Assembly (NCBI GenBank): GCA_964607945.1
Contig: CAZSNX010000002.1
Location: forward strand, 1 to 35,372
From: an uncultured Candidatus Obscuribacterales bacterium
GTDB lineage: Bacteria > Cyanobacteriota > Vampirovibrionia > Obscuribacterales > Obscuribacteraceae
Direction of reading: 5' to 3'
DNA: 35,372 nucleotides
Shown here: positions 21,076-35,372 of the stretch, piece by piece
Layout of the letters: each line of letters begins with the position of its first letter
Position numbering within the stretch: the first letter of the stretch is position 1
Notes under the pieces: generated by a model
Told to the model about the DNA's origin: nothing
The model's input: only the letters and a program-made list of their open reading frames with translations
Databases searched by the model: none
Program-made: the position numbers and the translations under genes

Positions 21076-21443
21076 TTAAGCCCCCTTTCCAGCAACATAT
21101 CATAAAGCTATAGATCAATTTGTACAAACATTTTTTTGCCACCACCGGCGAAGATTTCTCTCAGGAGCCCAAAACGATCTGGCAGTAATGGTTTCGGGCT
21201 GGACAAAAGATTTGGCACTGGTCCATTGGTATTTATCGGAAATTACAGGGAGGTTGAACCGGAGACTCTCAGGTTGACCTCTGACCGAGCGGCGCGTGCT
21301 GAAGCTTTCATCCGAGTCCATTGGGAAAAACCGGGGGGACTTGCGTAGGACCACCCAAGACAGCGGCAGAATGACCGGATAGTCTACTCTTGCGCCGGCT
21401 TGTCTTCAGGTGAGGGGATGTCCGGAACCCGGAAAGAGAGCAA

Positions 21444-22178
21444 ATGACTAAGAAGAAACAGGCAGAACAAAAGAATTGCGGCAATCAGATCTTGTTTGCC
21501 GGCTTGGGTTTGGTTCTGGCTACTGTACCTTTTGCCTGTCCTGGCTCGTCTGTGCAAGCTCAGGGAATGCAGTCTCTGCGCAATCCGCTTATTCCGGGCG
21601 TGCCAAGCGCTGGCCCGATGGAACAAGCCCAGGAAGGCATGCCGCCGCCGCCGGGCGATGGCGATACTCCGATGCCGGTAACTCCGGGGCATGAAGGCAA
21701 CCCGTTGCCGCCGCCGTCGGCAGTGACCGTTCCGGCTACCAGCCCGCTCGACAAGAGTGAAGTCAACTCGGCTGTCGCACCATATTTGACGCCACCGCCG
21801 TCAACTCCCGGCCAGAACCCCGGCATGCTTCCCGGAACATTAAGCGGCTACAGACCGCCGGCACTGATGACTGAGGTGCAACCTCAAGGTGGTCTTCAAG
21901 GCAATGCACCGATCCATAAGTGGGATGGGCAGACGACCAGGGATTATGGTCTAGTCCGGCCGCGCGGTTCGCAATCGACCGACTTTGGGCGGCCGCTGGA
22001 TCAAGTATCTGTGGTTCGAACCAACAAAACCGAGGACGGGCCGCGTCCGATCGGGCAAAACGGGGCACCGATGCAGCCAAATCTGGGCGGTGCTCAACAA
22101 ACTTCAGACCTTTACGGCGCAAGGACTCTGTACAAAGGTGCGTACCTGCGTCCTGTCATGACTATTGCTCCTTATTAA
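21444..22178 (+). CDS. secreted Pro-rich protein, paralog A
   Basis: Signal peptide ends in VQAQG. The mature part starts with LRNPLIPG. It shares PPPSTPG..PG and STDFG.P blocks with the next gene and ends in ...TIAPY. Confidence 0.6.
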   Translation: MTKKKQAEQKNCGNQILFAGLGLVLATVPFACPGSSVQAQGMQSLRNPLIPGVPSAGPMEQAQEGMPPPPGDGDTPMPVTPGHEGNPLPPPSAVTVPATSPLDKSEVNSAVAPYLTPPPSTPGQNPGMLPGTLSGYRPPALMTEVQPQGGLQGNAPIHKWDGQTTRDYGLVRPRGSQSTDFGRPLDQVSVVRTNKTEDGPRPIGQNGAPMQPNLGGAQQTSDLYGARTLYKGAYLRPVMTIAPY

Positions 22179-22206
22179 CCCAGGCTTCCAGGAGGCCAAG
22201 TAAATC

Positions 22207-23175
22207 ATGTTGACCAAGATAATCACCAGGGTAGCAATCGGCTTAGCGGTCACCGCCGGAGTGTGGCACAGCGCAGGCTGTCAATCCGCCCACGCTCAAG
22301 GGTCGAGCACGCTGCGCGACCCGCTCATTCCTGGGGCTATCAGCTCCGCGCCGTTTTTCCCGGCCGCTGAAGGTCGACCGCCGGCTCCCGGCAGCGGACC
22401 CACGCCGGCACCGGTCATCCCCGGTCAGGGCGGGCCGCCGACGCTATTGCCCTGGATACCGGCTGTGCCGTCCAATCAGATCGATATCGGCTCGAGCGGA
22501 ATACCTCTACCATTTGGACCTCCGGTTGAAATGCCGCCGGGCGTGCTCGGTCCTTTGATGACCCCCTTTGTGCCTGCACCGCCCTCCACTCCTGGTGTAG
22601 ACCCGGGCATTTTGACCGTGCCGCCCTATGCTCAGACATTCAACCCATCGGCGCTGGCGCCGGTTGCTCCGCTCGGCGGCATTCCCGGTACCGGTGGTTA
22701 TAACACCACCATCCCGACAGTCCGTCGCGGCGGGCAGGAGACTCATCAGTGGGAGTTGCGCGGGCGCAACAGTTCGCTGATTGGCGGATTGGGCGACGGC
22801 AGCCAAGATCAAGTATCGCGTTTGGGTCCTTATACCGGTTGGGGCTTGCCGTTCGGCGTGCCGACCGGCAACGGGCTGCGCAACAACTCGATCGATCTAG
22901 GCGGCGGCATGCGCTTCGGTGGCGGTGAAGGTACGCCTATTTCAACCGGCTCATCCTTGCAGGATTTCGGCGACAGCGCCATGCGTAACGCTCCGATCCA
23001 GGGGCTGGGCGCTCAGCAGTCGTACGAATACGGGCAAGGCTGGCGCCGGATTCCGATGTACAGCAGCAAGTCGACTGACTTCGGCTTCCCCTACAAGCAG
23101 TTCAATGGCGCCAACATCGGCAACCAAAAAACAGGACAGCGCTTGAATCCTACCGCTGTGATCACCAACTTCTAG
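22207..23175 (+). CDS. secreted Pro/Gly-rich protein, paralog B
   Basis: AGGAGG RBS. The signal peptide ends in AHAQG and is followed by LRDPLIPG. It shares blocks with 21444-22178 and ends in ...AVITNF. Confidence 0.65.
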   Translation: MLTKIITRVAIGLAVTAGVWHSAGCQSAHAQGSSTLRDPLIPGAISSAPFFPAAEGRPPAPGSGPTPAPVIPGQGGPPTLLPWIPAVPSNQIDIGSSGIPLPFGPPVEMPPGVLGPLMTPFVPAPPSTPGVDPGILTVPPYAQTFNPSALAPVAPLGGIPGTGGYNTTIPTVRRGGQETHQWELRGRNSSLIGGLGDGSQDQVSRLGPYTGWGLPFGVPTGNGLRNNSIDLGGGMRFGGGEGTPISTGSSLQDFGDSAMRNAPIQGLGAQQSYEYGQGWRRIPMYSSKSTDFGFPYKQFNGANIGNQKTGQRLNPTAVITNF

Positions 23176-23182
23176 CCTGCCA

Positions 23183-23216
23183 GGGGGGATTCTCCCATTG
23201 CAGTGGGAATTCCCCC
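23183..23216 (+). promoter_or_regulatory. two-copy GGGAWTYCCCC motif (site A) upstream of gene 23294
   Basis: The sequence is GGGGGGATTCTCCC-N8-GGGAATTCCCCC. The ends of the two copies are 20 nt apart. A TAAGAT -10-like hexamer (23242-23247) lies 25 nt after the second copy. Confidence 0.45.
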
Positions 23217-23293
23217 GCTTTCCTCCAGCAGGCGCTTCTCGTAAGATTCCAGCATCGCTCCATCCCCAGGCAAACAAAATCGAAGCCACCAAA

Positions 23294-24079
23294 ATGAAAA
23301 CCCTCCTTCCCAATTCGAATAAGACAGTACGGACGCTAGCGTTCGTAGCTGCCACGGTTCTGTTGGCAAGCAGCAGTGTTGGTCAAGCAGCCAGCGCTCA
23401 GGGATATGCCAGCGGCCAGTCTAACTACTTTGCCTCGGCCGGCTCCGAGCAAGATTCGTTGTTGCCACCAGAAGTGGTGCCGCTGGATCCGGTCGCTGCC
23501 AATAAGCTAATGGAAAGTCAGGCGCAATCGAGAGCAGCCAATATCGATATTCCCGACATGCAATCGGCCCCTGGTATGGTCACGATGGACCAGCCTGGAG
23601 CCGGCATGCAAACCGCTCAAGATGCTCGCAAAGCGGCGTTCAACCAGTTGATGGGGCAGAACCAAGTCGCTCCGATCAACCGCTCGTATCAGCCGCAGAT
23701 GCCTGGCGGTCAGATGGGACCTGGCGGTTTCCCCGGCGCTCCTGGCGCCGGAAATCCGAATTTCCCCTATCAACCGCAAATGGCCAACAACTATCCCGGA
23801 CCGCAAGGCGGTGCGGGCGGGCAAACCGCTCAGTCCGGTTGGATGCAGCCCGGACAAGGTGGACAACAGACTCTTTCCGGTGGTGTGAAATACACCCAAC
23901 AAAGACGTGATATTCGCCGGGCCGGCTTGTCGAATGCCGTAAGTGCGGTCGCCGGTCTAGGCACGGGATTGTTCCTCGGCTCGCTGGTTTCGCGCTCTTA
24001 TTATTCGAACCCGGTCGGGCTCGGGATGATGGGGTTGGGAATGACGGGATTTGGCATACGAAATGGATTTAGGTTCTAA
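23294..24079 (+). CDS. secreted Gln/Pro/Gly-rich protein with C-terminal glycine-zipper hydrophobic tail
   Basis: I chose M33 of the track ORF: MKTLLPNSNKTVRTLAFVAATVLLASSSVGQAASAQG is a good signal peptide. The C-terminus is GLGTGLFLGSLV...GLGMMGLGMTGFGIRNGFRF. Confidence 0.6.
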   Translation: MKTLLPNSNKTVRTLAFVAATVLLASSSVGQAASAQGYASGQSNYFASAGSEQDSLLPPEVVPLDPVAANKLMESQAQSRAANIDIPDMQSAPGMVTMDQPGAGMQTAQDARKAAFNQLMGQNQVAPINRSYQPQMPGGQMGPGGFPGAPGAGNPNFPYQPQMANNYPGPQGGAGGQTAQSGWMQPGQGGQQTLSGGVKYTQQRRDIRRAGLSNAVSAVAGLGTGLFLGSLVSRSYYSNPVGLGMMGLGMTGFGIRNGFRF

Positions 24080-24083
24080 GCAT

Positions 24084-24806
24084 ATGAAAGTGATCATTCT
24101 CGCTCTAATAACCACAGCAGCCACCAGCGTTCTTGCAGTGCAAAGCGCGAACGCCGAGGGTCGCTCCGCCCGATTCGATTTCGCTCCCAACATGTGGAAA
24201 GTCGAAGGGGTGCGCGTGCCTCCCATCCAAGAAGCTCCGCATGCAGTCAAAAGCGGTGCCGTGCCTCATGGTGCAAGCTTCCTCGGTCTGTCTCCGCATA
24301 TGCTCACTAAGCCGGCGCCGGTTCATCAACCGGCAATGCCGCCGCAAGCGCAAACTCAAGTAGCGGCAAAACCGAGCTTCACTCGGACCGTACCGCAGAT
24401 AGCAGTGCCTAACACGCAATACAAGAACGAATTCGGCAAGGCCGGCAGTTTGAATCCACCGGTGGTGGCAAGTGCACCGCCTGCTGTTGCTCCGCCGCTG
24501 CCGCAGTCTGCCGGTCAGGCTCAATCGCTGCCGCCGATGTCGCAGCAAGCCGCACCGGCAAAGGCAAGCTATCCAGCCAAACCGCTAGTGGCTCACAATC
24601 GTACGTCCTCAGCCAGAAATGTGCACGGAGTGCTTAAGCATCGTAACGCACCGAGTGGGCTGGTTGCCGATGCCGGCAAGAGGATCGACAGTTATGGCAA
24701 CAACGGTTATGTTCCAGGTTCATTTCTCCCGGCCGCTTACACCGGCGATGGTTCAACTACTCAGACCGACGTACACGGTCGAGTCATGAGCCACAGATCG
24801 AAATAA
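24084..24806 (+). CDS. secreted Pro/Ala-rich protein
   Basis: ATG 24084 lies 4 nt after the upstream stop. Signal peptide is MKVIILALITTAATSVLAVQSANAEG. The body is Pro/Ala/Gln-rich and low in complexity. Confidence 0.55.
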   Translation: MKVIILALITTAATSVLAVQSANAEGRSARFDFAPNMWKVEGVRVPPIQEAPHAVKSGAVPHGASFLGLSPHMLTKPAPVHQPAMPPQAQTQVAAKPSFTRTVPQIAVPNTQYKNEFGKAGSLNPPVVASAPPAVAPPLPQSAGQAQSLPPMSQQAAPAKASYPAKPLVAHNRTSSARNVHGVLKHRNAPSGLVADAGKRIDSYGNNGYVPGSFLPAAYTGDGSTTQTDVHGRVMSHRSK

Positions 24807-24880
24807 GGCATCACTTCGTTTCTCAACTAATTGGCGCAAGGTCAATAGATCTCTAAACTGACAACCCTAGGAGGTTAAAA

Positions 24881-25312
24881 ATGGTAACCAGCATTAAATC
24901 AACCAGCAAGAAGATTATGTCTTCTCGCGCCTTCAAGGTTGCCTGTCGCGTGGGATTTCTCCTGGCTCCACAACTGGTCCTCATGGCCATCGGTGTTTAC
25001 GATCAAGTAGCACATGCCCAAGGGCTGGTGGGAGCTCCAGTAGACCCCCGCTACGGGCAATCAAATGAAGTAGGTCAGATGGCCGACTTCGGATATGACA
25101 CCGCACGTGACATATCCCGGGTCGTGACCGCGCTTTCGACAATTCCGTCCTCGATGGCGGGAATGAAGATCGCTTTCGGTCAACGTGACGGTGGTGAATC
25201 CGCCATGAACGTAGCCAAAGGACTCGGTATCGGATTCGGTGGACCGACAGCGGTTCACTTGATCGGAACGTTCGCCATCAACAACTTCGGCGGACTCGGC
25301 GGCGGTCTATAA
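24881..25312 (+). CDS. small two-helix membrane protein, candidate VirB2/TrbC-like pilin
   Basis: Strong SD (AGGAGG, 7-nt spacer). A long leader ends in AHAQG. The mature part is about 96 aa with two Gly-rich hydrophobic segments (ISRVVTALSTIPSSMAGMKIAFG and GLGIGFGGPTAVHLIGTFAI) separated by a charged loop (QRDGGES). It sits immediately upstream of the VirB6-like genes. Confidence 0.5.
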   Translation: MVTSIKSTSKKIMSSRAFKVACRVGFLLAPQLVLMAIGVYDQVAHAQGLVGAPVDPRYGQSNEVGQMADFGYDTARDISRVVTALSTIPSSMAGMKIAFGQRDGGESAMNVAKGLGIGFGGPTAVHLIGTFAINNFGGLGGGL

Positions 25313-25327
25313 CCGTCACCGCTTTTC

Positions 25328-25352
25328 GGGCCGGTATCTTCGATACCGGCCC
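25328..25352 (+). terminator. stable hairpin 16 nt after the pilin-candidate stop; possible attenuating terminator
   Basis: GGGCCGGTAT-cttcg-ATACCGGCCC forms a perfect 10-bp stem with a 5-nt loop. No U-tract follows, so it is not a canonical intrinsic terminator. Confidence 0.35.
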
Positions 25353-25362
25353 GAATCCTTCA

Positions 25363-25378
25363 GGGGGAATTTCCCCCC
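25363..25378. promoter_or_regulatory. single near-palindromic copy GGGGGAATTTCCCCCC (site B) upstream of VirB6-like paralog 1
   Basis: It has the same core as sites A and C. It lies between the post-pilin hairpin and gene 25494. Confidence 0.35.
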
Positions 25379-25493: not shown

Positions 25494-28400
25494 TTGGATT
25501 CAACAGTGTTAGCCGACACTACTTGCATGATTCAATTTCTCTATCGGCTCCTGTGCGCCAGGATTTTTGATTCGACGCGCTTGCCTGCACTTTCTACCTG
25601 TAGAGTCGAAGTAAGAAAGAGTTCTTCAAGCAGAGCCGGTCGTGCACTGCTTGTAATGTTCTTGTTGTTGGCACCATACATTCTTTTGTCCGGCGCCGCT
25701 CTCGCTCAAACCGAGCCGCCCCAGCAGAAGGCCGGCGATACGCTGCCGATCGGGGCAGGCGATCTCGGAGCCGGCGATGATCTTTCGCCCAAGGCCAGCC
25801 GTACCGATCCGACCTCGAAGTATTACACTGATTCGCGAGCCGACACCAACCTGGTGACTCAGGAAGCCGAACAGAACAAAAATGGCGTCACCGAGATAGT
25901 TACGGATATGCTGAAAGGGCAGCTCGGCGAATACAACGACGTTTATTGGGGTCAGCACCAGTTCTGGTCGGATGATATTGTAAGCAACCTCTTTTCGAAT
26001 ATCGGCCAGCTGATTGGAAAATGGCTGACTGAGTTCATCGATGGCTGGGTAGCTGATACCGTTCAGTTCCTGACAGCCTTCCTTAGAATCTTCGTGCTCA
26101 ATCCCAACATCGCCGTCAACGGTTTGAACGGCAACGGGCAAGATGACATCTCACCTTATATCCGTCAAGCTGCCGATATAATGTATGGCATTGCGGTCGA
26201 CCTGCTGCTTTTGCTCTTTATCCTTTGCATTTGGAAGTATTGGGCTGAAGCCTCTTGGCGAGGCGGCGGCAACCTGATGGGTGCGGTCGGCAGATTGATC
26301 TTCACAGCCGGGCTGATGCTGGCTTGGCCGACCATCTATGCATTCGAGATTCAAATCACCAATGAGATGATCAAGGCCATCTATTTCAATTCGGCCGATC
26401 AGGTCGTGATGCTGGATGCCGCTATGGCTGCCGCAGTCAAGGGAGGCTTGATGGCGACGGCCGGAGGGCTGGCTCATGCCTTCGCACCGGTAATCTTTTC
26501 AGTGGCAGGTGGTGCTCTCGGCGGCGGTGCCGGCGGTCTGGTTTTAGGCACTGTTGGTGATATCGTGTCGTTCGCCGGGTTGCTTATCTACACCACCTTA
26601 GGTGTGGTGCTGATTACCGAGTTGGTCTATTTCCTGGTGCTAAAGGCGATTCAGACAGCGCTTCTGGTCGCTCAATACATGTTTGCGCCGATTTTTCTGG
26701 TGTTCTTCGCCACTCCCGATACCGAGTCGGTGACTTCCGGATTCGTCAAAGCATTCGTTGAAGTCAGTCTCTGGAATTTCGTCTGGATTGGACTGCTCAA
26801 GATCATGGTGATCGTCTTGTATTCCGATTTCAATCCCTGGGGCAAGATTATTATGGCTGTGGGCATTCTGCAGATCATGATTCAAGTGCCGGGCTTCCTT
26901 TCCCGAGCTCAAATCAGCCCGATGTCCGATTTCATTTCGGCCGGCTTGATCTCCGGCAGCGTGCTCAACGGCTTCAAAGCTCTGGGAATGGCGGCTACGA
27001 AACGCACATCTCAGCTGTTCGACTACATGTTCAATCAACAATACGCCGCGCGCGGATTGACGCAATCTACCGGTGCTGTGATGGCGACTTTGCCGACTCA
27101 GGCTGCTGACCCCAAACTGCTCAATCAAATCAGAGCGGCGGCTGTCGGCAAGTCTCTCGATGGCAGACCTGATACCGGTCCGGGCCGTCCGCCGGCGGCT
27201 CGCGGTGATGGCGCCCATTCACTGGCTGCGCCTGGTTTGACCGGGCTCAATGGACAGCAGCCGGAGACCGAACAGCAGAAACAGGCCCGCCTCGAGCAAG
27301 AGCGACAACAAAAGGCGCAACAGTATGCGGCCGTTTTGGCAGCTGCCAGAACCGGTACCGGTTTGCCGGCTGGTACGCAGCCCGTTGCTGGCGCCGCCGG
27401 AGTACCACTTGATGCCGCTGGCGGTGCCGGTGCTAATCTCAATGCTACCCCCGGAGTTAGAAATAATCTGGCGGCCGGTGCACTAGTCGGCGCCAGCGCA
27501 GGAATGGCAAGAGCGCTTTCGGATGCCGGGCTTCATCGCGGCGTGACCGATCCGCTCACGACCAATGTCGCACACGGGCTGCAAGGTGCCGGTCAAGCTT
27601 TCGAGAAAGGTCTGGACGAAAAGTTTGCGCACGGTGGTGCCGAAGGCGATGTAATCAATCCGGCACAACGATTCAATCATGCCGGTTATAAGTTCGTGCA
27701 GGCGAAGATAGCTGCTGTCGATGCCCGTACGTATAACGGCAACAGCATCGGCTTTTCCGATGACGGTCAGAACAAACTGGTTGGTGATGGACGCGGCAAT
27801 TTGAGGCATATGCGTGCTCGCAAAGGCGCCTCTGCCGAAGAAGTCGCGCATTTGGTGCTGGCCGGCGGCTTTACTGAGCTGTTCAAGGACGATTCGGAAG
27901 CTTTCGATGCTGCCCGGCAATCGGCTATTGATTCAGGCGAAGATGGTCCGAAAGGAATGTTCGAACGCATGGGCGCAGGCTTCATGGCGCATCAAGGCGG
28001 AACCTTCAAGCAAACGGCCAGAGCCAAGGAGCGCTTCGCCAAGTCGCTATTCAAGCATGCTGCTCTGGGCGCCGAGTCTTACGTAAGCGGTAAGCCCGGC
28101 AATGCCTACACTGAATATCTAAGAACACGTTTCGGAGATTGGAGCGCCAAAGACGACACTTGGGGTACTCATATCTTGACCGATGCGGCGTCACCGGAAT
28201 CGCCATGGAATCCAAAGTATGTCCCAGCAACGGAAACCGTGTTCCAGTCAGGCTTGCCGATCAACAACCAGAACCGCGCGGCTGCCGCCAACCCGTATGT
28301 GATGAAGCTGCCGGCCTGGCAGCGTAGAGCTGGTATCGTTGCCGTCTCCGGTTATTTGAAACAATTGGCTGATGCTCAATATCCGGATGCCGACGACTAT

Positions 28401-29438
28401 GTGCGCGACGCGGCGATTGGTCGGATGTCGCAACAAGTGGGTAATTCGGAGGTCGAAGCGGCCTATGCAATTCAGGTCGAATCGAACGGAGCCGATGTCA
28501 GTGTTCCGATCGTGCAAACTGTCGCTCAATTGAGCGAAGATCCACGCTGCAAGGATGCGGCTTCGGCATATCTCAATCTGCGTTCGCTGGTCGCTCACTC
28601 GTCGGGTGGCGGCACCCGCCGCGGCAACATAACGATTCAAGCGATGCTGCGGGATAGCGGCGGTGGTGGCGGGTCAGCGGCGCCGGTGCATCCAGGAAAT
28701 GTCCATATCCCAACCATCAATTCGCCGCCTCCGGTAGTTCAGCAGGATGCCGATATCGAGATTGTCGGCGGCGGTGGCGGCAGCGCCGATGGCAATCAGC
28801 CGGTACAAAGGCTGAGTATGGATGTTCCTCTCAACAATTCCGGTCAACCGCAAGTTCACACTGATACTCGTGTTCACGGTGGTGGCGCCGGCGGTGGTGG
28901 CGGCGTGCTCAACCAGAATGTCGAAGTGGAAGTACGTGGTGTGGGCGGTCAAGGACAGGCTCCCACCATCAGCCAGGGCGATATCGCCGGGGCCGTTGCC
29001 GGAGCCGGAGTCAATACGAGACCGCTTTACATGGCTGCTCAGATGATGCTGGATATGTACAACGCCGGCTTCAACGATTCGCAGATTCAAGACCCGAAAG
29101 TAGCCAACATCGCTACTCACTATTACAGTCAGGGTCAACCGCATATGCTCAGCACAGTAGCTGTTGCCGCTCGCGTCCTTGGCAACAACGATGTAAGCGC
29201 AGGCACCGTGCAGACGATTCAAACCATGATTGATGCCGGTCACAATCCCAACCAGATTCAACGTCCGGATGTATGGACGGCGGAAGCTTGTATCGCCAGA
29301 CAGCTCTACCCGACGCCGGCACAGGTGCGCCGATGGAGGCTGGATGAGCGCTTCAGCCCGCACAGAGGCTCGATGCTGCCGCCGAATCTGGGACGCAACG
29401 ATGGCCGACCCGATCCGCCCCAACATCGTGGCTCCTAA
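25494..29438 (+). CDS. giant VirB6/TrbL-like polytopic membrane protein with ~800-aa C-terminal extension, paralog 1
   Basis: 1314 aa. The signal-like segment ends in ALAQ-TEPP. About 8-9 TM segments lie at aa ~230-500. LLLLFILCIWKYWAEASWRGGGNLMGAVGRLIFTAGLML resembles the first TM, loop and second TM of TrbL/VirB6. A low-complexity linker and a conserved soluble C-terminal region follow. The start is uncertain (TTG 25494, ATG 25527, TTG 25581). Confidence 0.7.
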   Translation: MDSTVLADTTCMIQFLYRLLCARIFDSTRLPALSTCRVEVRKSSSSRAGRALLVMFLLLAPYILLSGAALAQTEPPQQKAGDTLPIGAGDLGAGDDLSPKASRTDPTSKYYTDSRADTNLVTQEAEQNKNGVTEIVTDMLKGQLGEYNDVYWGQHQFWSDDIVSNLFSNIGQLIGKWLTEFIDGWVADTVQFLTAFLRIFVLNPNIAVNGLNGNGQDDISPYIRQAADIMYGIAVDLLLLLFILCIWKYWAEASWRGGGNLMGAVGRLIFTAGLMLAWPTIYAFEIQITNEMIKAIYFNSADQVVMLDAAMAAAVKGGLMATAGGLAHAFAPVIFSVAGGALGGGAGGLVLGTVGDIVSFAGLLIYTTLGVVLITELVYFLVLKAIQTALLVAQYMFAPIFLVFFATPDTESVTSGFVKAFVEVSLWNFVWIGLLKIMVIVLYSDFNPWGKIIMAVGILQIMIQVPGFLSRAQISPMSDFISAGLISGSVLNGFKALGMAATKRTSQLFDYMFNQQYAARGLTQSTGAVMATLPTQAADPKLLNQIRAAAVGKSLDGRPDTGPGRPPAARGDGAHSLAAPGLTGLNGQQPETEQQKQARLEQERQQKAQQYAAVLAAARTGTGLPAGTQPVAGAAGVPLDAAGGAGANLNATPGVRNNLAAGALVGASAGMARALSDAGLHRGVTDPLTTNVAHGLQGAGQAFEKGLDEKFAHGGAEGDVINPAQRFNHAGYKFVQAKIAAVDARTYNGNSIGFSDDGQNKLVGDGRGNLRHMRARKGASAEEVAHLVLAGGFTELFKDDSEAFDAARQSAIDSGEDGPKGMFERMGAGFMAHQGGTFKQTARAKERFAKSLFKHAALGAESYVSGKPGNAYTEYLRTRFGDWSAKDDTWGTHILTDAASPESPWNPKYVPATETVFQSGLPINNQNRAAAANPYVMKLPAWQRRAGIVAVSGYLKQLADAQYPDADDYVRDAAIGRMSQQVGNSEVEAAYAIQVESNGADVSVPIVQTVAQLSEDPRCKDAASAYLNLRSLVAHSSGGGTRRGNITIQAMLRDSGGGGGSAAPVHPGNVHIPTINSPPPVVQQDADIEIVGGGGGSADGNQPVQRLSMDVPLNNSGQPQVHTDTRVHGGGAGGGGGVLNQNVEVEVRGVGGQGQAPTISQGDIAGAVAGAGVNTRPLYMAAQMMLDMYNAGFNDSQIQDPKVANIATHYYSQGQPHMLSTVAVAARVLGNNDVSAGTVQTIQTMIDAGHNPNQIQRPDVWTAEACIARQLYPTPAQVRRWRLDERFSPHRGSMLPPNLGRNDGRPDPPQHRGS

Positions 29439-29688
29439 AATTAGCTAGCTGGCTCCGAAGAGTTCGGCAGAGCGGCAAGATGAGTGCTGCCAGCCGTTTT
29501 TGGCGCTCCGGCAATTGAGTTGTTTGACGTCGGCTTACATCCCTATGCCGAAATCGACGGAAGCCGATAGTCAAAATCGTGCACAATTACACACTTACCA
29601 AAGTCGCCGGGCGCAATAACATTTAACTGTTGTTCCCTCCAACAAAATCAAGACCGCTTCACAGGCGGTTGGGCTGGCTTGTGTTCTC

Positions 29689-32600
29689 ATGAATAAAAGA
29701 TGGAATTTTTACGCTGGCATCGTCGGCCGAACAGATAGCCGCTCCGGCTTGGCGTTGTGCGCGCTATTGCTCGTTTTATTACCTTACTTTTGCCTGATTC
29801 CAGCATCCAATTCGCAGACCGAGCCGCCGGAGTCGGGCAATGCTTCGTCAAACAGTGCAAATGCAGTCTTAGATGATGGTTTGTCCGAGCAAGCGAAAAA
29901 GACTGATGCTACTGCCCGCTATTTTACCGATGCCGATCTCGAAACTTCGCTGGTACAGCAAGCCGCCGAGCAAAACAAGACCGGTGTGATTGAAGAAGTG
30001 GAGCGCCTTTTAAGAGGGGAGCTCGGCGTATACAACGATACTTACTTCGCGCTCCATCAATGGTTTTCCGACGATTGGGTAAGCAATCTCTTTGCCAATA
30101 TCGGGCAATTGATCGGTAAGTGGCTGACGGAATTCTTGTGTGGCTGGGTGGCGGATACGGTCAGATTGCTGACTGCGTTCTTGAAAATTTTCGTGCTCAA
30201 TCCCAATCTACCTGTCAACGGGATGAAGCAAGACGGACCATCGGATGATATCTCCAAGATGGTCTGCCAAGCTACTGATGTTATGTATGGAATTGCCGTC
30301 GACCTGCTCCTGCTGCTTTTCATTCTCTGCATCTGGCGATTTTGGGCCGATGCGGCGTGGAAGGGCGGCGGCAATCTGATGGGGTCTGTCGGGCGCTTAA
30401 TTTTCACCGCCGGGCTGATGTTGGCATGGCCGACTATCTTTGCCTTCGAGATTCAAATCACAAATGAGATGATAAAGGCCGTCTACTTCAATTCGGCAGA
30501 TCAACTCGCTCAATTGGATGTCGCACTGGCAGCGGCGGTCAAAGGTGGGCTGGTAGCGACGGCGGCCGGTATTGCACAGGTATTTGCGCCGGTTTTAGGC
30601 GCAGCGACCGGCGGTGCGCTGAGCGCCGAGCTCGGCGGTATGGTGCTGGGCACCGTCGGCGATATCGTGGCCTATGCCGGGCTGATAGTTTTCACTATCC
30701 TGGGCGTCGTCCTGATAGCCGAAATAATGTATTTCCTCATATTGAAAGGGATTCAAACCGGGCTGCTTACCGCCCAATATATGTTTGCGCCAATTTTCCT
30801 GGTCTGTTTCGCTACCCCTGATACCGAATCGTATGCCTCCGGTTATGTCAAAGCGTGGATTGAGACGAGCTTGTGGACTTTCATCTGGGTCGGACTGTTC
30901 AAAATAATGGTGATCGTCATCTACTCGGATTTCAATCCCTGGGGCAAGATTATTATGGCGATCGGCGTTTTGCAATTGATGATTCAAGTGCCGGGATTTC
31001 TTGCCAGAGCAATGATATCGCCGATGTCTGACTTCATTTCGGCCGGTCTAGTTTCGGCGATGGCGTTCAAGGGGTTGGCTACTTTAGCCGGTGTCGGTGG
31101 AAAGGCGATGAATCGCTTCACCAAACAAGTGGCGGAGTGGCCGGCGCAGTATCCGCTCGTTTCAAAGGCGGCCGATCTGAACCGGTTGCCTACAAATGCT
31201 GCAGACCCGAACTTATTGGCTCAGTACAGAACGGCTTCTGCCGCCAAACCGATGGGAGCTGCCGGCACCGCCGGCTCACTGGGTGGTCCGGGCGCGGCCG
31301 GCGCCATCGGTAGCTCCGGAGCTGGAATCAATACCGGCACTGCAATCAACACTCAAAATGGTGCCGCTCAACCGGTAGCCGGTCAAACTGGTGCCGGATT
31401 TGCAGCCGGTGGGCAAATGACTGGCGTGCCGCAAAGAAGAGGCTCGCTTGGTGGCGTTGGGGCAAATCCGGCGTTGACTCCTGCCGGTCAGCCGGAAACT
31501 GAAGAGCAGCGTCAGAAGCGTCAGGAGATGGAAAGACTGCAAAAGGCCTCTAAATATGCTGCTGCTCTCCAGCAACAGAAGCAGGGTATAGTCACCGGCG
31601 GTTCAGCGCCGGGAACCGCAAACTTTGCCGCGGCCGGCGCGCTTACCGGAGTTCGGGCCGGACTGGGACGGACGCTCTCGCCGGCTGGTGTTCAGCGCGG
31701 AATGGTTGATCCCACTACAACCGGTGTTCCCGACGACGTGCAAGGACAAGATTTCATTTCAGCGGGGCTTGACAGTCTGCCCGGCTCGAATCAGCCTGAA
31801 AAGAAAGCCACATTCAATGCCGCAGAACAGCTCAATCAAGCTTATTACAAGTTCGTCCAAGGAAAGATAGCGGCGGTAAACGCTCGCACGTACAACGGCA
31901 ACAGTATCGGCTATTCCACCGATGGAAAAAACAAGCTTGTCGGTGACGGCAAGGGCAATCTCCGGCATATGCGAGCGCGCAAAGGCGCGACACCGGAGGA
32001 GGTGGCGCATCTGGTGCTGGCCGGTGGCTTCACTGAACTCATGAAAGATGATGCCGAAGCGCATGATGCCGCCAGAAATGCGGCGATTGACTCCGGTGTG
32101 CTGGAGCCTGAGCGATTGGGAAGACCGGGCGGGCTGTCCGAGCGGATAGCAGCCGGTTGGATCGGTTACAACGGCGGCAGCTTCCGGGAAACTGCCTTGG
32201 CCAAACAACGGTTCAATCGGGCGATGTTCGAACAAGCTGCCACCGGCTCAGAAGCTTATGTCAGCGGCCAGGAAGGCAATGCTTACACACAATATTTGCG
32301 CACTCGTTTCGGTGAATGGACGAGCAAGGACGACACCTGGGGTGTCCACATGATGACCGATGCCTCGATTGCGGCATCGCCCTGGAATCCTACCTACATC
32401 GCTGCCACCGACTCGATCCTGCAAGGCGGCATGAAGATAGATGAGCGGAATCGTGCCGCAGCCGGCAATACGCATGTTTTGAAACTGCCTGCCTGGCAGC
32501 GAAAGACGGCCATCCCGGCTGTGGCTGCTTACGCCACTCAGTTGGCCGAAGCGCAGTTTCCCGGGGCTGATTCTACAATCATCGACTCGGCGGTGCTGGG

Positions 32601-33450
32601 CCTGGTGCAGCACTTGAGCCCTCATGAAGTCTCGGCAGCCAATGCTATCTATCTGGAAGCTGGTGTGGAAGGGCTGTCGGTGCCGATGGTGCAGACAGTG
32701 GCCAATCTCTCCCGGCTGCCTGGCTCCGGCAGCGCTGAAGATGTGTACAAGAGCTTGCGCAGCACGATGAATGTGGTGACCAGTGCGCGACCGAGGAGCG
32801 CCGGCGGCAGTTCAACTGTTCGTGTCCTTTATGATGAAGGCGGCGGCTCAGCTCCACCCCCACCTCCGGCAATCGATGGCAACTTTATCGACGGCGGGCA
32901 TAGTGCAGCCGGTGTAACTGATATCGAAGTTCGCCCGCTTGGCGGGTCGCCCGGAGATTACAGTTCACCGGTGCAGGAAATTCATGTCGCCTCAGGCGGA
33001 GGCTCGTCTGGTGTAAGTGTTGGTAGATTTGATATGCCGCCGGCACAAAATGCCAATTTGATCGAGCGAGCCAGTCAGGTGGTGGTGCGCATGTATGACG
33101 CCGGCATGAACGACAAGCAGATACGCGACAGTCGGGTTGCCGATCTCGCTCATCATTTCTACGATAACCATCCGCACATGATGCATGCGGTTTCAGTGGC
33201 GGTGGATTGCCTGCCGCCGGGCGAATTGGATGTCGAGTCGGTCCATACAATAAATGATATGTTGAGCTCCGGTTACAACCCCGGTCAGATTCACCGCGCC
33301 GAAGTGGAGGTCGCTCGACGCTTCCGCGGTCAAAATATTGACCCCTCTCCGCGAGCTGTTGCCAGCTGGAGACAACGAGCTTACAATGATCCGACCATGA
33401 ACTCCGCTCCGCCGTCCCCACGCGGGCGAAAAGATCGAGTCAACCAATAA
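29689..33450 (+). CDS. giant VirB6/TrbL-like polytopic membrane protein with C-terminal extension, paralog 2
   Basis: 1253 aa and collinear with paralog 1. By-eye alignment gives 64/72 identical residues at 30289-30504 against 26187-26402, and 71/84 identical at 31846-32097 against 27687-27938. Confidence 0.75.
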   Translation: MNKRWNFYAGIVGRTDSRSGLALCALLLVLLPYFCLIPASNSQTEPPESGNASSNSANAVLDDGLSEQAKKTDATARYFTDADLETSLVQQAAEQNKTGVIEEVERLLRGELGVYNDTYFALHQWFSDDWVSNLFANIGQLIGKWLTEFLCGWVADTVRLLTAFLKIFVLNPNLPVNGMKQDGPSDDISKMVCQATDVMYGIAVDLLLLLFILCIWRFWADAAWKGGGNLMGSVGRLIFTAGLMLAWPTIFAFEIQITNEMIKAVYFNSADQLAQLDVALAAAVKGGLVATAAGIAQVFAPVLGAATGGALSAELGGMVLGTVGDIVAYAGLIVFTILGVVLIAEIMYFLILKGIQTGLLTAQYMFAPIFLVCFATPDTESYASGYVKAWIETSLWTFIWVGLFKIMVIVIYSDFNPWGKIIMAIGVLQLMIQVPGFLARAMISPMSDFISAGLVSAMAFKGLATLAGVGGKAMNRFTKQVAEWPAQYPLVSKAADLNRLPTNAADPNLLAQYRTASAAKPMGAAGTAGSLGGPGAAGAIGSSGAGINTGTAINTQNGAAQPVAGQTGAGFAAGGQMTGVPQRRGSLGGVGANPALTPAGQPETEEQRQKRQEMERLQKASKYAAALQQQKQGIVTGGSAPGTANFAAAGALTGVRAGLGRTLSPAGVQRGMVDPTTTGVPDDVQGQDFISAGLDSLPGSNQPEKKATFNAAEQLNQAYYKFVQGKIAAVNARTYNGNSIGYSTDGKNKLVGDGKGNLRHMRARKGATPEEVAHLVLAGGFTELMKDDAEAHDAARNAAIDSGVLEPERLGRPGGLSERIAAGWIGYNGGSFRETALAKQRFNRAMFEQAATGSEAYVSGQEGNAYTQYLRTRFGEWTSKDDTWGVHMMTDASIAASPWNPTYIAATDSILQGGMKIDERNRAAAGNTHVLKLPAWQRKTAIPAVAAYATQLAEAQFPGADSTIIDSAVLGLVQHLSPHEVSAANAIYLEAGVEGLSVPMVQTVANLSRLPGSGSAEDVYKSLRSTMNVVTSARPRSAGGSSTVRVLYDEGGGSAPPPPPAIDGNFIDGGHSAAGVTDIEVRPLGGSPGDYSSPVQEIHVASGGGSSGVSVGRFDMPPAQNANLIERASQVVVRMYDAGMNDKQIRDSRVADLAHHFYDNHPHMMHAVSVAVDCLPPGELDVESVHTINDMLSSGYNPGQIHRAEVEVARRFRGQNIDPSPRAVASWRQRAYNDPTMNSAPPSPRGRKDRVNQ

Positions 33451-33598
33451 TCGAGTCTTCAAATTTATAAGTGAGCCAATCAGAGTTAGTTGGCGCAGAT
33501 GAGGCTATCCCTCACGCAGTGTTGCGATGCGTTGATTAATTCTTGCTTCCCGACTACGTATTTCCCCCACTAATTTGCCTGAAACGCCTATTAGCGAT

Positions 33599-33630
33599 GG
33601 GCATTCCCCCATGACCGTGGGATTTCCCCC
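33599..33630 (+). promoter_or_regulatory. two-copy GGGAWTYCCCC motif (site C) upstream of the zinc-ribbon gene
   Basis: The sequence is GGGCATTCCCCC-N8-GGGATTTCCCCC. The ends of the two copies are 20 nt apart. A TACACT -10-like hexamer (33656-33661) lies 25 nt after the second copy, the same geometry as site A. An extra partial copy, TATTTCCCCC, is at 33559-33568. Confidence 0.45.
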
Positions 33631-33708
33631 GATTCACCGCGGAAGATGCCGGCCATACACTATGGACACGTGAATTGGAAGCCACTCACGGACTGGCAGG
33701 AACCCATT

Positions 33709-34407
33709 ATGCAAGTCATCAAAGAGTTTAGCGTTCAACCTACATCAGTGGTCTGTCCGGCCTGCAATTCAATCTTTGCCACCCCGGCGCTGGTAACGAT
33801 GCCGAATGTCACGCCCGAAACTTTGATCGAGGCTGACCTGCACAGGGTGTTGCCTGATGCGGCGATTCGAGCTGCGCTGGTGGCGATGTGTCCGGCTTGC
33901 AGCTATACCTGGTGGATTACCGCATTCAGACCACATCTATTTAAGCCCGGTCTGGTTCCTCCCACACCGATTATCGACAGTCCTAAGAAGTTTGCTCATG
34001 CCGTTTTGACCGGCAGACAAAACGGTGCTCACAGCTTGGACCTGGCACTGTTGGCGTTGAACGGATGCTGGTGTGCGCGCGAGGCCGGACAGCCTCACGA
34101 GCGCTGGCTGGAGCTGGCCGGAGCCGAACTCGAGAAAGCTTTGAGAGATGTCGAATGGAATGGCAATCGTAGCTACTATCACTATGTCATGGGTGAAGTC
34201 TGCCGGCAGTCGGGAGAGTTCAAAGGTGCGGTAAATCAGTTAAATCTGGTCGGACCAGAGTCAATGTTGCCGAAAGAATTAGTGGAACGCCAGAAGGTGC
34301 AGGCGATATCCGGCGATGCCAAGCCGGCGGCGCTGCCACCGCATCTGGTGGAGCTCCTTTTCTGTCCGAGAGTGAAGCAGCAAGAAAGTTTGGTTGCTGA
34401 GGAGTAG
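33709..34407 (+). CDS. DUF2225-like zinc-ribbon protein with helical (TPR-like) C-terminal part
   Basis: CPAC...(about 40 aa)...CPACSYTWW matches the split zinc-ribbon layout I recall for DUF2225. I prefer the start MQVIKEF (ATG 33709, AGGAA upstream) over ATG 33646, because 33646 lies upstream of the putative -10 element. Confidence 0.55.
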   Translation: MQVIKEFSVQPTSVVCPACNSIFATPALVTMPNVTPETLIEADLHRVLPDAAIRAALVAMCPACSYTWWITAFRPHLFKPGLVPPTPIIDSPKKFAHAVLTGRQNGAHSLDLALLALNGCWCAREAGQPHERWLELAGAELEKALRDVEWNGNRSYYHYVMGEVCRQSGEFKGAVNQLNLVGPESMLPKELVERQKVQAISGDAKPAALPPHLVELLFCPRVKQQESLVAEE

Positions 34408-34415
34408 CCGGAGAG

Positions 34416-34754
34416 ATGGAAGATATCACACCGCTTAATCTTGAAGATCAACCAAAGCTGTTCGGATTGCGTTACGACCAGCTGATAGCAATCCTGGCCA
34501 GCTTGATCGTATCGACGCAACTTTATTCTTGGCTCAACCCCGTTCCGTTCGCCGGACACGATCTCCGGTTGGACATTGCTATCCTGATCGGAATGATTGG
34601 TCCTATTTATGCACTATTCACCCTAAACAACTCGGCAGCACATTGGGAAAATGTACTGAATTTCTTTCTTTCATCGAAAGTCTATATTCCGGGACCGGAT
34701 CCAAATCCGAATCGTTTTCTTCTTGACGAAGAGCTAGTTGACTTCAGCGAGTAA
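34416..34754 (+). CDS. VirB3/PrgI/TcpE-like small two-TM type IV secretion component
   Basis: 112 aa. PKLFGLRYDQLIAILASLIV resembles the (F)(G/N)LT.RQL motif plus TM1 of PrgI/TcpE-type VirB3 analogs. A second TM is DIAILIGMIGPIYALF. It lies immediately upstream of the VirB4-like ORF. Confidence 0.55.
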   Translation: MEDITPLNLEDQPKLFGLRYDQLIAILASLIVSTQLYSWLNPVPFAGHDLRLDIAILIGMIGPIYALFTLNNSAAHWENVLNFFLSSKVYIPGPDPNPNRFLLDEELVDFSE

Positions 34755-34759
34755 ACACA

Positions 34760-35372
34760 ATGGTAGCTTCAATTTCAAGACAACGTGCTAAAGAGAGCAA
34801 CCTTCTAGGCTTCATGCGCCGGACGAAGATTGACTCCGCCGACAGTGTCGGCATATCCAAGCTGCCGGCAATGGCGGTGCCAAGACCGCACGGCTCTGCC
34901 GCCGGATTAATCCCGATCTGGGACCTCTTCCAGGATGACAATTCAGGTCTGGGGGTGATCGTCCTTAAAGACGGAAGCTATCGTTGCTGTTTTGAAGTCG
35001 ACGGCGTTCACGTGAGCGGTTTCGATGAAGTACGGTTGGTCTCCTTGATGAACCACTTTACCGGCTTTCTCAATTCGATCGACACATCCGTTCAGCTCAC
35101 GATCGTCTGTCACAACATAAGCAAGAGAGAATATTTCGCACGCCATCCGGTAGAGGTAATTGATGATGAGTTTCTCAAATACGTCGCACGCTCTGTTGAA
35201 AACGATAAAGCATTTCTTCTCTCCAAGAACTTCATTCCAGAGCTCAAGTTCTACGTCACTTTCTGCTATCGCCCCCCGCGCGAAAAGCCAGCCAAGCAAG
35301 GATGGCTCGAAAGCACGCTCAGCCACATTCAAGATGTCTTCACAAATCAAGCCGCACGTCAGACGGTCGGGC
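34760..35372 (+). CDS. VirB4/TraE-like type IV secretion ATPase, N-terminal fragment; runs off the window end
   Basis: My own translation from ATG 34760 (5 nt after the upstream stop) is open to the window end and is not in the ORF track. GLGVIVLKDGSYRCCFEVDGVHVSGFDEVRLVSLMNHFTGFLNSIDTSVQLTIV follows the N-terminal pattern of VirB4-family proteins (dG.y...levdg.n.....e......f..fLnsl....iq). Confidence 0.65.
   Translation, partial: MVASISRQRAKESNLLGFMRRTKIDSADSVGISKLPAMAVPRPHGSAAGLIPIWDLFQDDNSGLGVIVLKDGSYRCCFEVDGVHVSGFDEVRLVSLMNHFTGFLNSIDTSVQLTIVCHNISKREYFARHPVEVIDDEFLKYVARSVENDKAFLLSKNFIPELKFYVTFCYRPPREKPAKQGWLESTLSHIQDVFTNQAARQTVG

Follow-up and report, generated by a model that had tools for sequence, protein, structure and literature searches.

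A predicted promoter element conserved in Candidatus Obscuribacterales marks a putative type IV secretion regulon

Introduction

What is the function of a short, partly palindromic box that stands in two copies, at a fixed distance from a -10-like hexamer, ahead of two operons of a type IV secretion system (T4SS)-like gene cluster in an uncultured Candidatus Obscuribacterales bacterium? The boxes lie in a stretch of 35,372 nucleotides (nt) of contig CAZSNX010000002.1 (positions 1 to 35,372 of the forward strand), referred to here as the window, which belongs to a 4.96-Mb assembly of 769 contigs with 52% GC and 82% completeness. A sequence-only reading of the window had drawn attention to them at two places, site A (23183-23247) and site C (33599-33661), and had proposed that they serve either an activator or an alternative sigma factor or regulator dedicated to the cluster. 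The Obscuribacterales are uncultured, non-photosynthetic relatives of the cyanobacteria, and their lifestyle has largely been deduced from genomes. Our analysis suggests, with a probability of roughly 0.7, that a dedicated dimeric regulator, probably an activator, binds the boxes as tandem sites at sigma-70-type promoters of a T4SS regulon.

Results

At site A, GGGGGGATTCTCCC (23183-23196) is followed on the plus strand by ATTGCAGT, GGGAATTCCCCC (23205-23216), 25 nt of intervening sequence, and the hexamer TAAGAT (23242-23247), and at site C, GGGCATTCCCCC (33599-33610) is followed by ATGACCGT, GGGATTTCCCCC (33619-33630), again 25 nt, and TACACT (33656-33661). The two-box element and its fixed distance from a -10-like hexamer had thus been read exactly at both sites, in letters as well as in coordinates. 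The boxes are nearly palindromic, GGGA-WW-TCCC, and each carries a further CC on one (outer) side. The boxes of site A, GGGGGGATTCTCCCA (box 1, 23183-23197) and TGGGAATTCCCCC (box 2, 23204-23216), are mirror images of each other (GGGGGAWWTCCCA and TGGGAWWTCCCCC), box 1 being an inverted copy of box 2, and those of site C, which in this delimitation spans 33598-33661, are direct copies, TGGGCATTCCCCC (box 1, 33598-33610) and TGGGATTTCCCCC (box 2, 33618-33630), all on the plus strand. Both sites share one common architecture of two quasi-palindromic boxes with a period of 20 bp, and when they are aligned on box 2, they are concordant over about 37 positions and beyond.

The earlier statement that no good TTGACA-like hexamer is present holds only as far as the quality of the match is concerned. 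A -35-like hexamer does occur, starting 2 nt past box 2 at both sites and separated by a 17-nt spacer from the TAnnnT hexamer, and it matches TTGACA weakly, at three of six positions at site A (TTTCCT, 23219-23224) and at four of six at site C (TTCACC, 33633-33638; TTTACC in most genera). A TAnnnT hexamer with a 17-nt spacer to TTTACC or TTTCCT, and with a gene on the same strand, is the sequence pattern of a sigma-70-type promoter. If the -10 hexamer is set at -12 to -7, transcription would start near 23254 at site A and near 33668 at site C, 40 nt ahead of ATG 23294 and 41 nt ahead of ATG 33709, respectively, the box centers would fall near -44.5 (box 2) and -64 (box 1), and box 2 would end at -38. 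Box 2 adjoins the -35 hexamer without overlapping it, and its center at -44.5, numbered from the predicted start, compares with about -41.5 for a class II activator site; at no site do the boxes overlap the -10 hexamer or the start site.

The list of open reading frames (ORFs) places the start of the gene behind site C at ATG 33646, which lies upstream of the predicted -10 hexamer. Comparison with orthologues puts the true start at ATG 33709 (MQVIKEF...), and with this start the leaders at sites A and C are both about 40 nt long.

The same anatomy bears on the idea that an alternative sigma factor, for example a group-3, SigF/SigJ-like factor, recognizes the boxes directly as part of an extended promoter, with GGGAAT as an extended -10 element. 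The model for such a promoter is the J-Box, GGGaAtacT, which in Nostoc punctiforme forms the extended -10 element of promoters that depend on SigJ. It has a conserved A(-11) and T(-7), shares the GGGAAT core with our boxes, comes from broadly the same phylum, and serves a surface-appendage regulon (PMC6495340). About 15 genes of the sigma-70 family are also present in the genome, none of them on the contigs that carry regulon sites. However, the positions that define a -10 element are not kept in the boxes, where the equivalent of A(-11) is either A or T (GGGATTTCC, GGGAATTCC) and the final position holds C instead of T. In a J-Box promoter, the box and the -10 element are one and the same, whereas the box described here is followed at 26-38 nt by an invariant -10 hexamer distinct from it; a J-Box or SigJ promoter was rejected on both grounds. 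A distance of 26-38 nt is too great for sigma region 4, a sigma factor reading the boxes would leave unexplained the TAnnnT hexamer that follows box 2 by 25-26 nt with its 17-nt spacer, and at sites of type B (see below), no -35-like element is conserved ahead of the single box. The ordinary sigma-70-type -10 and -35 hexamers, with boxes too far upstream, thus disfavor this part of the sequence-only reading, and we consider direct recognition by an alternative sigma factor improbable.

A predicted regulatory site should be conserved where its surroundings are not, and this is what the alignments show. When 27 sites of types A and C, drawn from 17 genomes, are aligned, the first two positions (T and A) and the last position (T) of the -10 hexamer never vary (27/27), conservation reaches 90% or more in the GGG, CC, and TGGGA columns of the boxes, and the spacers are not conserved. 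A wider set consists of the surroundings of the pilin-like gene in 75 species loci from Candidatus Obscuribacterales, Obscuribacteraceae, and Melainabacteria, and 66 of these loci contain a full-length match, always on the gene strand. The information in the 58 distinct sequences among these matches peaks at GGGGG, TCCCAT, TGGGAA, CCCC, and TA..AT, TGGGA and CCCC being the most informative columns, and the box columns carry about 1.6-2 bits versus about 0-0.4 bits in the spacers, which is the pattern of a phylogenetic footprint.

Sites A and C, together with a single-box site B that lies between them, are found at orthologous positions in a genome of the same genus, and all three, including TAAGAT, also occur in another genus with just 70% identity in the VirB6-like protein. 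The sites recur in most of a further 20 loci, and the architecture spans about 20 genera that have the syntenic cluster. A covariance model that uses sequence only and was built from the sites (R1) matches all genomes of the family (31/31), typically with two strong hits per genome at a distance of 6-10 kb from each other, and it reaches E values of 1e-8 to 1e-14 in 13 genomes outside its training. Across a class-wide sample, R1 matches were found in 8/8 and 2/2 genomes of two Obscuribacterales families and, at an E value of ≤0.001, in 0/50 genomes from the eight remaining families of the class, which serve as a negative control as well. This phyletic range matches that of the VirB6-like gene, which is present in 23/24 and 3/3 genomes of the two families and in none elsewhere in the class. 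As judged from these comparisons, the element is a predicted promoter element of a T4SS regulon, conserved and specific to the order.

Within the genome, the element is rare and points into genes. GGGAWTYCCCC with up to one mismatch occurs 12 times in the window versus 2.3 +/- 1.7 times in shuffled sequences, none of 100 shuffles reaching 12, and 11 of the 12 matches fall in site A, B, or C. There are four exact copies of GGGAWTTCCCCC in the assembly, and the tandem form is found at A and C only. A position weight matrix (PWM) trained on other genera only, with the rows of this assembly and of a second genome, G001, excluded, scores site A at 69.7 bits and site C at 55.4 bits, the top two of the genome, and shuffled genomes reach at most 3.1 bits. 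Seven sites of the assembly exceed 20 bits, namely A, C, and five sites at 21-37 bits, and all seven are oriented into a downstream gene. Model R1 adds two sites beyond those of the PWM, one on contig C83 and one on contig C214, and a same-strand ORF is found 30-110 nt past each genome-wide site. Over all genomes, R1 gives between 1 and 14 matches per genome at an E value of ≤1, and all of the strong matches point into genes.

A genome-wide scatter of the kind seen with REP-like repeats, which had been raised as the finding that would speak against a regulatory role, was not observed; the element is rare, gene-directed, and not REP-like. Nor is it restricted to the cluster, as about six further sites occur elsewhere in the genome, each ahead of a gene. 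The notion of a cis-regulatory element with a dedicated regulator is supported by the conservation in about 20 genera and in 66 of the 75 loci, but the predicted regulon extends beyond the cluster.

These counts also bear on a reading of the boxes as a REP- or miniature inverted-repeat transposable element (MITE)-like repeat, or as a site of oriT type or of recombination that belongs to a mobile T4SS element. In favor of this reading, the sequence is repeated and partly palindromic, and a coupling protein is encoded in the T4SS cluster where it lies. However, each genome has fewer than 10 copies, all of them directed into a gene and set at a constant distance from a -10 hexamer, and from genus to genus the element recurs at the same unlinked orthologues. 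The cluster itself is syntenic with radA-uvrC-mgsA in many genera, and it appears to be vertically inherited rather than mobile. A REP-like repeat, for which tens to hundreds of copies would be expected, was rejected by the genome-wide counts and PWM scans, and we regard an origin of this kind as barely credible.

Alternatively, the boxes might act in RNA, as hairpins that terminate, attenuate, or stabilize read-through transcripts of the upstream operon. Site A can indeed form an interrupted hairpin of 14 bp (-32.8 kcal/mol, z = -2.3), and it begins 8 nt past a stop codon, and a strong hairpin is found ahead of site B. Site C, in contrast, folds no better than its shuffles (z = -0.07), no U-tract follows any box, and a terminator scan calls nothing at the sites. 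On the 27 aligned sites there is no covariation (0.084 observed versus 0.114 shuffled, with 499 of 500 shuffles at least as high), only 78% of the cells are paired, and the A/T centers vary without keeping complementarity. On contigs C21 and C5, the gene upstream of the unlinked site is divergently oriented, so that no transcript arrives from upstream that could be terminated at these positions. Rfam gave no match in the window at the gathering score and none at an E value of ≤1 around site A. An RNA hairpin or terminator, for which both strands of sites A, B, and C were folded, was rejected for want of covariation and of a U-tract, and a role of the boxes at the RNA level seems very improbable to us.

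The cluster contains two further sites, which differ from A and C. Upstream of the first Pro-rich gene lies a fourth, variant box-promoter, site P (21322-21385, plus strand), which consists of TGGGAAAAACCG (21322-21333), TGCGTAGGACCACCC (21342-21356), a -35 hexamer AAGACA (21357-21362), a 17-nt spacer, and a -10 hexamer TAGTCT (21380-21385). Its box period of 20 nt is identical to that of A and C, and so is the offset of 38 nt to the -10 hexamer, counted from the T that stands ahead of GGGA in box 2 of A and C. Site P is kept in 16 of 17 genomes in the form AGTGGGAAAAACCG - N7-8 - (T/A)(G/A)CGTA - N5 - CACCC-AAGACA - N17 - TAnnnT, and four genera have the canonical box 1 (GTGGGAGAAATCCCAT) at this position. 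Box 2 of site P is a variant half-site, TCGTA/TACGA, which stands in for TGGGA/TCCCA at several of the unlinked sites and at some of the A sites as well. With site P, every operon of the cluster has a predicted box-promoter, and the four Pro-rich genes divide into two plus two. The two transcription units that had been proposed for these genes are thus the best reading, with site A between the second and the third gene and site P before the first.

Site B is a single palindromic box, GGGGGAATTTCCCCCC (25363-25378, plus strand), upstream of the first VirB6-like gene, and it is preceded by a strong hairpin without a U-tract (GGGCCGGTATC-TTC-GATACCGGCCC, 25327-25353, plus strand; fold z-score, -6.2) that follows the pilin-like gene. 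In many other genera, the box of site B is followed by A-CTGACA/ATGACA-N17-TAAnAT, a near-consensus sigma-70 promoter. This genome and three others (G001, G017, and G024) have kept the box after a strong hairpin, and no recognizable -35 or -10 hexamer is found in them at the distance seen in the other genera.

The genes behind these sites are all encoded on the plus strand. Operon 1 (21444-23175) encodes two paralogous Pro-rich proteins with signal peptides, and operon 2, behind site A (23294-25312), encodes two secreted Pro/Gln-rich proteins and a VirB2-pilin-like protein of 143 amino acids (aa). Two giant VirB6-like paralogues follow downstream of site B (25494-33450), and the operon behind site C (33709-35372) encodes a Zn-ribbon/tetratricopeptide repeat (TPR) protein (DUF2225), a VirB3-like protein, and the N terminus of a VirB4-like ATPase (NCBIfam, 1.9e-46; Pfam TraG P-loop, 1e-17). 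Past the window, the operon behind site C runs on with a membrane protein of about 215 aa and then a coupling protein of the VirD4/TraG type (PF02534, 4.8e-15).

The gene order, which is a coiled-coil gene on the minus strand, the first two Pro-rich genes, site A, the other two Pro-rich genes and the pilin-like gene, site B, the VirB6-like genes, site C, and the Zn-ribbon/TPR, VirB3-like, and VirB4-like genes and onward, is kept in about 20 genera, adjoining radA-uvrC-mgsA, which suggests that the cluster is chromosomal and vertically inherited. Taking the VirB4-like, coupling protein, pilin-like, and VirB6-like genes together, we predict that this is a complete T4SS-like cluster.

Several features of the individual proteins may be added here. 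The pilin-like protein (24881-25312) is 82-99% identical over the 75 species loci and is by far the most conserved of the cluster, and its Pro-rich neighbors are only 26-60% identical in other genera. The protein of about 215 aa, in four loci and others, is a single-pass membrane protein with no Pfam match and is VirB8-like by position only; the VirD4/TraG-type coupling protein of the same loci has 970-1060 aa and long low-complexity tails. The window ends at 35372, inside the VirB4-like gene, at a run of about 10 N (35373-35382 of the same contig). A frameshift in this gene was considered and rejected, as the break in the frame is the assembly gap of N, and the orthologue in G001 is a single ORF of 931 aa.

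Outside the cluster, unlinked sites precede the genes for two paralogous proteins of 1227 and 1301 aa (C83, 7661-7730 and 11549-11617, minus strand), a 925-aa protein (C21, 5834-5904), a 1041-aa protein (C5, 2470-2538), a 375-aa protein (C214, 7277-7313), a 78-aa protein (C545, 619-671), and a TPR protein with a signal peptide that is encoded directly upstream of rpoB on the same strand (C65, 4825-6973). The 78-aa protein (MSMFQDPRDEE.LCQVLKAYVEEWGPENVIV...) carries the element in six genera, including this one, in which it is 79-85% identical and always found behind a box-promoter; it belongs to no family, and a search of the PDB gave no significant match (best E value, 0.42). The TPR protein, of 630-740 aa, is found behind a box-promoter in five genera, again including this one, and large proteins starting with MGD... 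or MGG... are found behind the element in three other genomes as well.

The large proteins (375-1301 aa) have no signal peptide and no Pfam domain. Several of them start with MGD... or MGE... behind a conserved GGAGG leader, as do their relatives in other genera, and the MG-x3-S/A start of some resembles, in letters only, a eukaryotic N-myristoylation signal. The regulon defined by the element comprises a predicted complete chromosomal T4SS, the 78-aa protein, the secreted TPR protein, and at least five large leaderless MGD... proteins. Their apparent co-regulation with the secretion genes suggests that the large leaderless proteins may be substrates or effectors of the T4SS.

Discussion

We propose that a dedicated, probably dimeric DNA-binding regulator would occupy the boxes and thereby control a small T4SS regulon of the Obscuribacterales. 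The 20-bp period of the boxes corresponds to about two helical turns and would place both of them on one face of the DNA, and a regulator bound beside a poor -35 hexamer (TTTACC, TTTCCT, or TAGACC) might recruit or stabilize RNA polymerase containing a housekeeping-type sigma factor, much as class II and class I activators or lambda cI at PRM do. The four T4SS operons, with promoters near 21385, 23247, 25378, and 33661, would then be expressed together with the 78-aa protein, the secreted TPR protein, and the large leaderless proteins. In this proposal, we infer from the sequence that TAnnnT is the functional -10 hexamer, that a protein binds to the boxes, and that this binding activates transcription.

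A number of our observations weigh against this proposal. At site B in this genome, no -10 hexamer is recognizable at the expected distance, and in many genera the box of site B stands beside a good -35 hexamer, so that a weak -35 hexamer is not a universal partner of the box and activation is a probable rather than a certain mode of action. Searches of the regulon proteins and of those encoded in or beside the cluster against Pfam and NCBIfam revealed no recognizable DNA-binding domain that would mark one of them as the regulator. The Zn-ribbon protein of the cluster (DUF2225) gave a confident structure model (pLDDT, 89.5) whose fold matches TPR proteins only, and on this model a role as a chaperone or adaptor is more probable than DNA binding. 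The AlphaFold model of the 78-aa protein is unusable (pLDDT, 50).

The promoters of type B also raise the possibility that the boxes are the operators of a repressor or of a dual-function regulator that would hold the T4SS regulon off until a signal arrives, for instance through cell contact, either by looping or by occlusion of the alpha subunit C-terminal domain (alpha-CTD) or of the -35 region. Where the box of site B is combined with near-consensus -35 and -10 hexamers, an activator should not be needed; palindromic operators paired at 20 bp are typical of repressor tetramers, and box 2 ends just 2 nt from the -35 hexamer. On the other hand, the boxes never overlap the -10 hexamer or the start site, and the poor -35 hexamers (three to four of six matches) at sites of types A, C, and P are the usual signature of dependence on an activator. 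As far as the sequence can tell, activation is favored by boxes that leave the -10 hexamer and the start site clear and by the weakness of most of the partner -35 hexamers, and we consider repression unlikely.

Returning to the proposed regulator, we can speculate further that the reader of the boxes is a DNA-binding protein restricted to this lineage, from a family whose DNA-binding role has so far gone unrecognized, and that the regulon is an effector-translocation system used to attack or exploit other cells. We regard this extension as possible but doubtful. If it were true, with both a novel regulator and effector translocation, the box would be a ready-made effector finder for an uncultured order. 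The box already provides a transcription-unit map that can be tested and a short DNA bait for the regulator, and, applied to any genome of the order, it can be used as a sequence rule to predict which proteins are co-regulated, candidate secreted effectors among them.

How does this element compare with regulatory sequences that are already known? In the literature that we searched, no description of the motif or of the regulon in bacteria was found. Literature on the word GGGAATTCCC is mostly eukaryotic, chiefly concerned with NF-kappaB, and describes no bacterial promoter motif, a search for T4SS regulation in Obscuribacter returned nothing beyond the Vampirovibrio genome paper, and one on DUF2225 returned nothing useful. 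The NF-kappaB site (GGGRNWYYCC) has an identical 10-bp core, and GGGAATTCCC is an ideal palindrome for p50. An NF-kappaB-like factor was nevertheless rejected, as no Rel-homology domain is detectable in the genome (best E value, 0.14, below the cut-off), and we take the resemblance to be coincidental. The motif and the regulon are new, whereas the mechanism that we propose for them is an ordinary one, with a regulator site upstream of a sigma-70-type promoter.

In its layout, the element recalls promoters controlled by CRP or FNR through class II and class I sites, or the OR2 and OR1 operators of lambda cI at PRM, in which dimer palindromes also lie about two turns apart, the proximal one abuts a weak -35 hexamer, and the -10 hexamer is an ordinary TAnnnT. 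It differs from them in sequence, as GGGAWWTCCC is unrelated to TGTGA-N6-TCACA, to TTGAT-N4-ATCAA, or to the cI operators, and no gene of the Crp family is linked to the cluster described here. A textbook class II site is centered at about -41.5 and overlaps the -35 hexamer, whereas the proximal box described here is centered 3 bp further upstream and does not overlap it.

In its use, the element resembles the boxes that define secretion regulons in other bacteria, such as the PIP box of HrpX and the hrp box of HrpL in the type III secretion systems of plant pathogens, the tra box of TraR on Ti plasmids, and the MxiE box. In each of these cases, a short box at a fixed distance from the -10 hexamer marks both the operons of the apparatus and unlinked genes for its substrates, and ours likewise marks the apparatus operons and unlinked genes for candidate substrates. 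The Obscuribacterales element differs from all of them in sequence, in lineage, and in the machine that it would serve, a chromosomal, vertically inherited T4SS whose substrates are candidates drawn from the regulon. Since the known boxes mark substrate genes as well as the apparatus, the box described here may likewise be of use for predicting effectors.

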